Shown piece by piece: positions 5,451 to 6,026 of a stretch of DNA of 10,764 nt. Origin of the DNA: a virus (lineage: Duplodnaviria; Heunggongvirae; Uroviricota; Caudoviricetes); IMG/VR virus record IMGVR_UViG_2541047501_000021, positions 1 to 10,764 of that record, one strand, 5' to 3'. Position numbers and translations under genes: made by a program. Numbering within the stretch: the stretch's first letter is position 1; the number at the start of each line of letters is the position of its first letter. The notes beneath the pieces are model-generated. The model was given only the letters and a program-made list of their open reading frames with translations. It was not told the origin of the DNA and ran no database searches.

Positions 5451-5840
5451 ATGGAATTTAAAGATTTACTAAAAGAAATCCAGGAAATTGCAGCACATGC
5501 ACTTCACCAACGTCTGAACGAAGTTGAATTAGAATCTGCAACGAAGAAATACATTGATAATATGGCTCGTAATGTGCGCGATGCGTTTACCGGATTGTAC
5601 TCTGTTTCGGTAACAAACAACCAGAATACTGAAGAAACTGCAAAGCGGATTGCCTCGGTGATGGGTTTTCATGTCGAGGAAAAGTATTCAAAAAAAGAAT
5701 TCTGGAAAACTACAAAAAAATTGCAGAGCGAGAACTGTCATCTCCTGCGGCAATCGCTTCTTTCTATGAGGAAAGTTATTCAGATGACACAGGATTACCG
5801 GAACTGCTCTCATTACTTGAAAAATTCGGAATTATCATGA
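5451..5840 (+). CDS. Hypothetical protein at the ydfC position; frame-disrupted, with the protein-like C-terminal part continuing in the -1 frame to 5989
   Basis: GGAG ribosome-binding site 6 nt upstream of ATG 5451. Frame-0 translation is protein-like up to about 5700 and junk-like after; the -1 frame is protein-like from about 5705 to the TAG at 5987-5989. The switch occurs at A-AAA-AAA heptamers (5690-5696 or 5714-5720). Confidence 0.5.
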   Translation: MEFKDLLKEIQEIAAHALHQRLNEVELESATKKYIDNMARNVRDAFTGLYSVSVTNNQNTEETAKRIASVMGFHVEEKYSKKEFWKTTKKLQSENCHLLRQSLLSMRKVIQMTQDYRNCSHYLKNSELS

Positions 5841-6026
5841 AAGGGACTGCGTCGGCGGATTTCACATACTCAATGATGGCTGCTGATGGAGAGCCTTTTC
5901 CTCCCGAACTTAAAATAACCCCCGGCAATCATCCGATGGTAACAATAAGAGCAATAGAGAATTACTGGTTTAATCCAGTTCAACAATAGTTGGTCTTTGC
6001 AATATTTTTAATGGGCCACTACGCCC

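Follow-up and report, generated by a model that had tools for sequence, protein, structure and literature searches.

A single-base deletion in an adenine tract probably split an accessory gene carried by a decaying lambdoid prophage of Escherichia coli

The window analysed here is a stretch of 10,764 nucleotides, positions 1 to 10,764 of the Caudoviricetes record IMGVR_UViG_2541047501_000021, and it carries genes of a lambdoid prophage. Over an 801-nt stretch, the identity to the prophage DNA of many O157:H7, O103, O121 and other E. coli strains is 100%. The gene order annotated by PGAP in one identical copy is replication genes, YdaT/YdaS-like regulators, an HTH repressor, RelB, RelE, ydfA (DUF1391), ydfB, an ORF of 129 aa, dicB, DUF1482, an exonuclease and an integrase. 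The RelB/RelE-type toxin-antitoxin pair occupies 4398-4876 (+), between the prophage repressor gene and ydfA in the PGAP annotation of the identical O157 locus. The 129-aa ORF is the subject of this study, and the features that define it and its surroundings are the following.

5442-5445, plus strand: GGAG ribosome-binding site, read from the sequence, 5 nt upstream of the ATG at 5451
5451-5840, plus strand: frame-0 ORF of 129 aa, from the ATG at 5451 to the TGA at 5838-5840, taken from the ORF list and its translation
5690-5696, plus strand: first A7 run, TCA AAA AAA (S-K-K), in-frame coding sequence in the alignment with intact homologues and not the lesion
5714-5720, plus strand: second A7 run, ACA AAA AAA, the probable site of the lesion, aligned with A8 in the closest intact alleles
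5720-5989, plus strand: ancestral C-terminal part, now in the -1 frame (IAERELSS...NPVQQ, 89 codons and the TAG at 5987-5989)
5721-5840, plus strand: out-of-frame tail of the present ORF, LQSENCHLLRQSLLSMRKVIQMTQDYRNCSHYLKNSELS followed by TGA, which has no counterpart in the intact homologues
5837-5840, plus strand: ATGA overlap, in which the frame-0 stop TGA lies over a Met codon within the ancestral frame
5837-5989, plus strand: ORF of 50 aa that begins at the Met codon of this ATGA

The gene directly follows ydfA-ydfB and precedes the dicF region and dicB, and this slot is the one that ydfC (b1573) occupies in the Qin dicBF operon of K-12. The preliminary description of this DNA had referred to a gene at the ydfC position, which is correct for the slot but does not extend to the protein. 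BLASTP of K-12 YdfC against the 179-aa joined protein described below returned no alignment at E <= 100, and the two are non-homologous genes in the same slot.

The prophage is decaying, as can be seen from its shortened exonuclease, integrase and dicF. The exonuclease ORF (Exonuc_VIII domain) is 414 aa long, compared with 823 aa in a related O157 prophage, and together with the integrase ORF, which is 183 aa long and aligns with no more than the C-terminal part of its Pfam domain, it spans 7232-9009 (+). The shortening of these two ORFs suggests that the left arm of the prophage is truncated, and this arm appears to have been deleted or rearranged. No complete E. coli genome of the collection matches the window past 7225 in one piece. 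Three genes lie beyond the truncated integrase.

9082-9429, plus strand: DinI-like gene
9591-10232, minus strand: NleG type III effector gene
10314-10748, minus strand: second NleG type III effector gene

At the dicF position there is a shortened dicF-like sequence at 6549-6586 (+), TTTCTGGTGA--TTCGGCGGAAATGGATATCCGCCCTTTTT, which falls about 19 nt short of the dicF of K-12 and of PV15-279, an O157 strain. The initial 10 nt are retained, as is a terminator-like hairpin (6562-6581 and a T run), but the central and 3′ part is missing; an Rfam search of the position returned no DicF, even at E <= 1. The intergenic region around it, 6271-6766, is otherwise homologous to K-12 ydfC-dicB. Rfam also gave a sub-threshold match to STnc100, a Salmonella sRNA family, at 6580-6798 (+), scoring 29.5 bits where the gathering score is 47, with E = 2.5e-4. 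This match covers the full length of the model, begins a short way ahead of the dicB start (6766) and continues into dicB.

The 129-aa ORF is labelled WP_000394511.1, 'hypothetical protein', by RefSeq/PGAP and carries no pseudogene flag. When it is compared with intact homologues, residues 1-90 correspond to the ancestral N-terminal part and residues 91-129 are the out-of-frame tail. The -1 frame is open over 5633-5989, that is after a TGA at 5630-5632 and through the TAG at 5987-5989, and it is protein-like from about 5720 on; the likeness of frame 0 to its relatives ends at 5720, and the +1 frame over the region is full of stops. Joining frame 0 to the -1 frame gives a product of 179 aa, in agreement with the figure of about 180 aa proposed earlier. 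The product of 5720-5989 is identical to residues 91-179 of P0121, a protein of the draft assemblies considered below, and 97% identical to P0001, the closest of the intact homologues. The frame-0 stop at 5838-5840 exists only because of the frame shift, and the Met codon with which the 50-aa ORF begins is read as part of I-M-K in the intact alleles. It is conceivable from the sequence that termination-reinitiation at the ATGA could release the C-terminal 50 residues as a peptide of their own.

The two A7 runs lie exactly where the preliminary description placed its slippery heptamers. By codon indexing both are in the A_AAA_AAA (X_XXY_YYZ) register of frame 0, TC[A AAA AAA] and AC[A AAA AAA], so that the locus has the two in-register heptamers and the open -1 frame (5633-5989) by which the slippery-heptamer criterion recognises a programmed -1 site. 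A7 runs as such are not enriched across the window, where 8 were observed and 7.7 +/- 3.5 are expected. It is not the A7 runs but the splitting of a conserved protein that goes beyond chance expectation.

Five independent intact alleles have one continuous ORF of 177-186 aa across the site. Two of them are copies of about 80% identity in complete genomes, a single ORF of 186 aa in ETEC4068 and a single ORF of 177 aa in TUM9812. The other three were found in a protein search with the joined product and are likewise continuous: P0001 (94% identical, 179 aa), P0002 (84% identical, 179 aa) and P0003 (80% identical, 180 aa). The same search returned more continuous proteins of 177-186 aa at 63-70% identity. 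In the DNA alignment with the intact alleles the window lacks exactly one base, a single gap column at the second A run. P0001, P0002 and P0003 have A8 at this run (ACTACAAAAAAAATTGC, reading TTKKIAERE) in the context ACT(A/G)CAAAAAAAATTGC, which reads T-T/A-K-K-I-A-E-R; the corresponding intact loci with A8 are L005-L008, L010 and L025, as against A7 in the window. More distant intact alleles have the non-slippery CCAAACGCATC at the same site (A-K-R-I). Since the closest intact homologues carry A8 where the window carries A7, the lesion is most probably an A8-to-A7 deletion at 5714-5720. On the 3′ side of the second run the -1 frame of the window agrees with the homologues residue for residue. 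Between two C-terminal allele types of the intact alleles, the C-terminal part has a dN/dS of 0.20-0.24 at a dS of 1.15-1.37, and this low ratio indicates that the stranded -1 frame is real coding sequence, subject to purifying selection in the intact relatives. The ETEC4068-type allele is a mosaic with respect to the window, with a breakpoint at the second A run, upstream of which the identity is about 95% and downstream about 70%.

The first A run behaves differently. It is TATTCAAAAAAAGAATTC in every intact allele but P0003, which has TCGAAAAAA; the A7 is therefore kept and read in frame in four of the five intact alleles (YSKKEFWK/SKKEFWK), and the P0003 version is also in frame. The switch from frame 0 to the -1 frame that the preliminary description had located within 5690-5720 is thus real, but it takes place only at the second run, the first being conserved in-frame Lys-Lys coding sequence. 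Other alleles in public assemblies (P0017, P0018 and L023) are frameshifted at the first run (SKKNSGKW, A7 to A6). These are possibly miscalls, and they suggest that both A runs are hot spots of indels or of miscalls.

One simple explanation of such a split would be a homopolymer miscall in the assembly of the window, the real gene being intact, and length errors do occur in the second tract in poor assemblies (L011). The A7 tract is nevertheless present in 386 of 386 independent complete E. coli genomes with this allele, of which 384 are identical over 71 nt, and the allele is found in about 7% of complete E. coli genomes. With a 72-nt A8 query, 386 complete genomes were hit, every one at 98.6% and not one at 100%, a result that is ambiguous alone because a P0001-like A8 allele with one mismatch also scores 98.6%; it was resolved by a 71-nt query with A7, which matched the same 386 genomes, 384 at 100% and two with one substitution. 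In a pattern scan of IMG/VR and metagenomes in which A5-A9 were allowed, all eight window-type (CTAC) contigs had A7, and in P0002-type (CTGC) contigs the run was A8 and the ORF intact. At least 1000 contigs encode the 129-aa protein in exactly this form. A scan of the genome-contig collection for the A tract gave no hits, and the census is that of the E. coli, viral and metagenome sets. The sequencing error considered in the preliminary description is, in view of this recurrence, extremely unlikely.

Tract lengths other than A7 are known for the window allele from a few assemblies. The exact A8 version (P0121, P0130) is in three drafts, GCA_000263935.1, GCA_000178315.1 and GCA_014905315.1, one of which has another unique single-base indel nearby; these copies may be revertants, ancestral survivors or miscalls. 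An A6 version (P0011) is in one assembly, which must be regarded as error-prone since it has 11 single-base deletions in 4 kb relative to the window. Such variants, together with the first-run frameshifts in P0017, P0018 and L023, are what could be expected of a phase-variable on/off switch in which slipped-strand mispairing of the DNA converts A8 (full-length) into A7 (truncated) and back. However, none of the 386 complete genomes departs from A7, so that switching would be rare at best, and both the quality of the A6 assembly and the extra indel in one of the A8 drafts detract from the variants themselves. Tracts of 7-8 are moreover at the lower limit for contingency loci, which also counts against phase variation, and we regard such a switch as very improbable.

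The sampled copies of the window allele differ by 0-1 substitutions over 539 nt, from which it follows that the frameshift is recent and that a selection test within the frameshifted clade is without power. At the GNHP[R]V site the window allele has Met, and Arg is invariant in nine of nine intact homologues. Because the three A8 draft assemblies share the Arg-to-Met change, it need not post-date the frameshift.

A programmed, that is selected, -1 frameshift or transcriptional slippage at 5714-5720, and possibly at 5690-5696, would make the 129-aa and 179-aa products in a fixed ratio from one mRNA. A junction peptide …EFWKTTKKIAERE… would be expected for programmed -1 reading. The register of the two heptamers and the open -1 frame are in keeping with this possibility, as are the wide distribution of the allele and the use of A_AAA_AAA by some IS elements (PMC4066793). 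A weak hairpin also begins 7 nt past the second heptamer.

5728-5757, plus strand: weak interrupted hairpin of 4 + 4 bp, with two G-U pairs and a 3x3 internal loop; MFE -10.9 kcal/mol, z -0.41

This hairpin is equally present in the intact A8 alleles, however, and the downstream folds of 5697-5760 and 5721-5800 are no better than those of dinucleotide shuffles (z = -0.41 and +0.22, respectively). The ATTGC...GCAAT stem at about 5720-5755 that had been put forward earlier, itself with reserve, is absent from the predicted minimum-energy fold. Inspection by eye revealed no Shine-Dalgarno-like (AGGAGG-like) element ahead of either heptamer, the 17 nt upstream being GAATTCTGGAAAACTAC. Neither the two-frame arrangement nor the slippery site is conserved, all diverged homologues being single ORFs with in-frame A8 or the non-slippery CCAAACGCATC, and the first heptamer is read through in frame by the intact relatives. 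The allele is in any case too young to show selection for the arrangement. The preliminary description had named homologues with a single continuous ORF and one more or one fewer A as the finding that would speak against recoding, and single ORFs with one more A are what the comparison revealed. The locus resembles the programmed -1 sites of dnaX and IS3/IS911 (A_AAA_AAG or A_AAA_AAA with stimulators) in having a zero-frame A heptamer and an open -1 frame, but it differs from them in the absence of an upstream SD-like element and of a stable hairpin or pseudoknot, in the lack of conservation of the arrangement, and in having AAA rather than AAG in the A site, which is the weaker motif in E. 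coli (PMC4066793). With the split not conserved and stimulators not detected, programmed frameshifting seems very unlikely to us, and any slippage here would probably be incidental.

The family to which the gene belongs offers few clues to its function. The joined protein has no significant match in Pfam, NCBIfam or PADLOC, and a profile search of the PDB gave nothing. In PHROGs it matches only the unknown-function families phrog_1363 and phrog_2151, and only with residues 1 to about 90, the N-terminal module. An AlphaFold2 model based on a 9-sequence alignment is too poor for use (pLDDT 50, pTM 0.34). The N-terminal module also occurs in 'Ybl81', a large family of E. coli proteins of about 212 aa whose C-terminal domain is unrelated. 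More generally, this module of about 90 aa (MEFKDLP..IQEIAA..NVRDAFTGLYS; 5451-5720; P0019-P0120) is shared by families with unrelated C-terminal halves, among them the 179-186 aa type with its two allele classes, the 'Ybl81' type and types of 121-129 aa. In the truncated 129-aa product this shared module is complete, and what has gone is one of the variant C-terminal domains.

Taken together, our results favour an ordinary, lineage-specific frameshift mutation (A8 to A7) of an accessory gene, in a lambdoid prophage that is decaying, over programmed recoding, with a probability that we put at roughly 0.85. Of the explanations offered in the preliminary description it is the pseudogene in a decaying prophage that agrees with the comparative evidence, close and distant homologues alike having a single ORF and the closest ones A8 at 5714-5720. 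The ancestral gene after ydfA-ydfB in the dicB operon of the prophage would have encoded a 179-aa protein. In the lineage of the window, one A would then have been lost from the A8 tract (codons ACA AAA AAA ATT; T-T-K-K-I), most simply by replication slippage. Translation from the ATG at 5451 would consequently leave the ancestral frame after Lys90 (5718-5720), add 39 unrelated residues and stop at 5838-5840, so that the final 89 codons (5720-5989) are left behind in the -1 frame and the product is shortened, with its conserved N-terminal module preserved. The A7 allele is young, as its near lack of sequence diversity shows, and the prophage, which is widespread in Shiga-toxin-producing E. coli, has carried it into O157:H7, O103, O121 and other E. 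coli strains. The deletion was presumably neutral or a loss of function. The locus is alike to other homopolymer-indel pseudogenes of decaying E. coli prophages in the single-base change of a run, in the existence of intact orthologues and in its truncated neighbours (exonuclease, integrase, dicF). Nothing essential distinguishes it from them, except that two in-register A_AAA_AAA heptamers are left and the lesion may for that reason be leaky.

The point that stands against a reading as a deletion and nothing else is that both heptamers are in the -1 register and that a -1 shift exactly repairs a 1-nt deletion. As the missing base lies within two A_AAA_AAA heptamers that are both in register, full-length protein may still be made by a minor share of the ribosomes, or from a minor share of the transcripts. 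In a reporter system in E. coli, heptamers without stimulators reach at most about 10-fold over a background of 0.055%, and A_AAA_AAA is among the motifs that exceed 0.1% (PMC4066793). C_AAA_AAA without designed stimulators in the overexpression vector pDEST17 gave 25-60% frameshifting in E. coli (PMC1851650), and the non-programmed suppression of single-bp deletions in E. coli amounts to 1-10% in aggregate (PMC10861913). In each of the frames, E. coli genes contain fewer AAAAAAA than expected, and transcriptional slippage and a high rate of indels are put forward as possible reasons (PMC4066793). In the G-run 'savior' indel of the herpes simplex thymidine kinase (reviewed in PMC5009743), in the pDEST17 heptamer (PMC1851650) and in the suppressed 1-bp deletions of E. 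coli (PMC10861913), as here, a 1-nt indel is in or next to a homopolymer and -1 slippage could partly correct it; in contrast to those cases, the present locus is known from its sequence alone. It is mechanistically plausible that some full-length product arises by incidental slippage, nothing indicates selection for it, and any residual full-length protein would be an unselected by-product.

A stronger version of this idea is that the A7 is itself a 'savior indel', in which slippage by the ribosome or by RNA polymerase restores a few % of the 179-aa protein, and that such leaky low-dose expression, or a rare reversion from A7 to A8, was favoured during the spread of the prophage in Shiga-toxin-producing E. 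coli. The A7 allele is widely successful and its -1 frame is still without stops. Since the allele is so young, neither its wide spread nor its stop-free -1 frame carries weight in either direction, and we consider selection of this kind very doubtful. If it were true, the indel would tune down a costly prophage protein without losing it.

With the deletion taken as the cause of the split, the most immediate consequence is a correction of annotation, namely that WP_000394511.1 (129 aa) is probably what a frameshift has left of a 179-aa protein and that its record could carry a flag to this effect. The locus also provides a worked example of a general point: where the corresponding run in close relatives is one base longer, a slippery heptamer that lies in register at a break of the frame does not count as evidence for programmed recoding. 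The finding is of little biological importance, but if residual slippage were measured at this site, the locus would become a natural test case for the leakiness of 1-nt A-run deletions in vivo.
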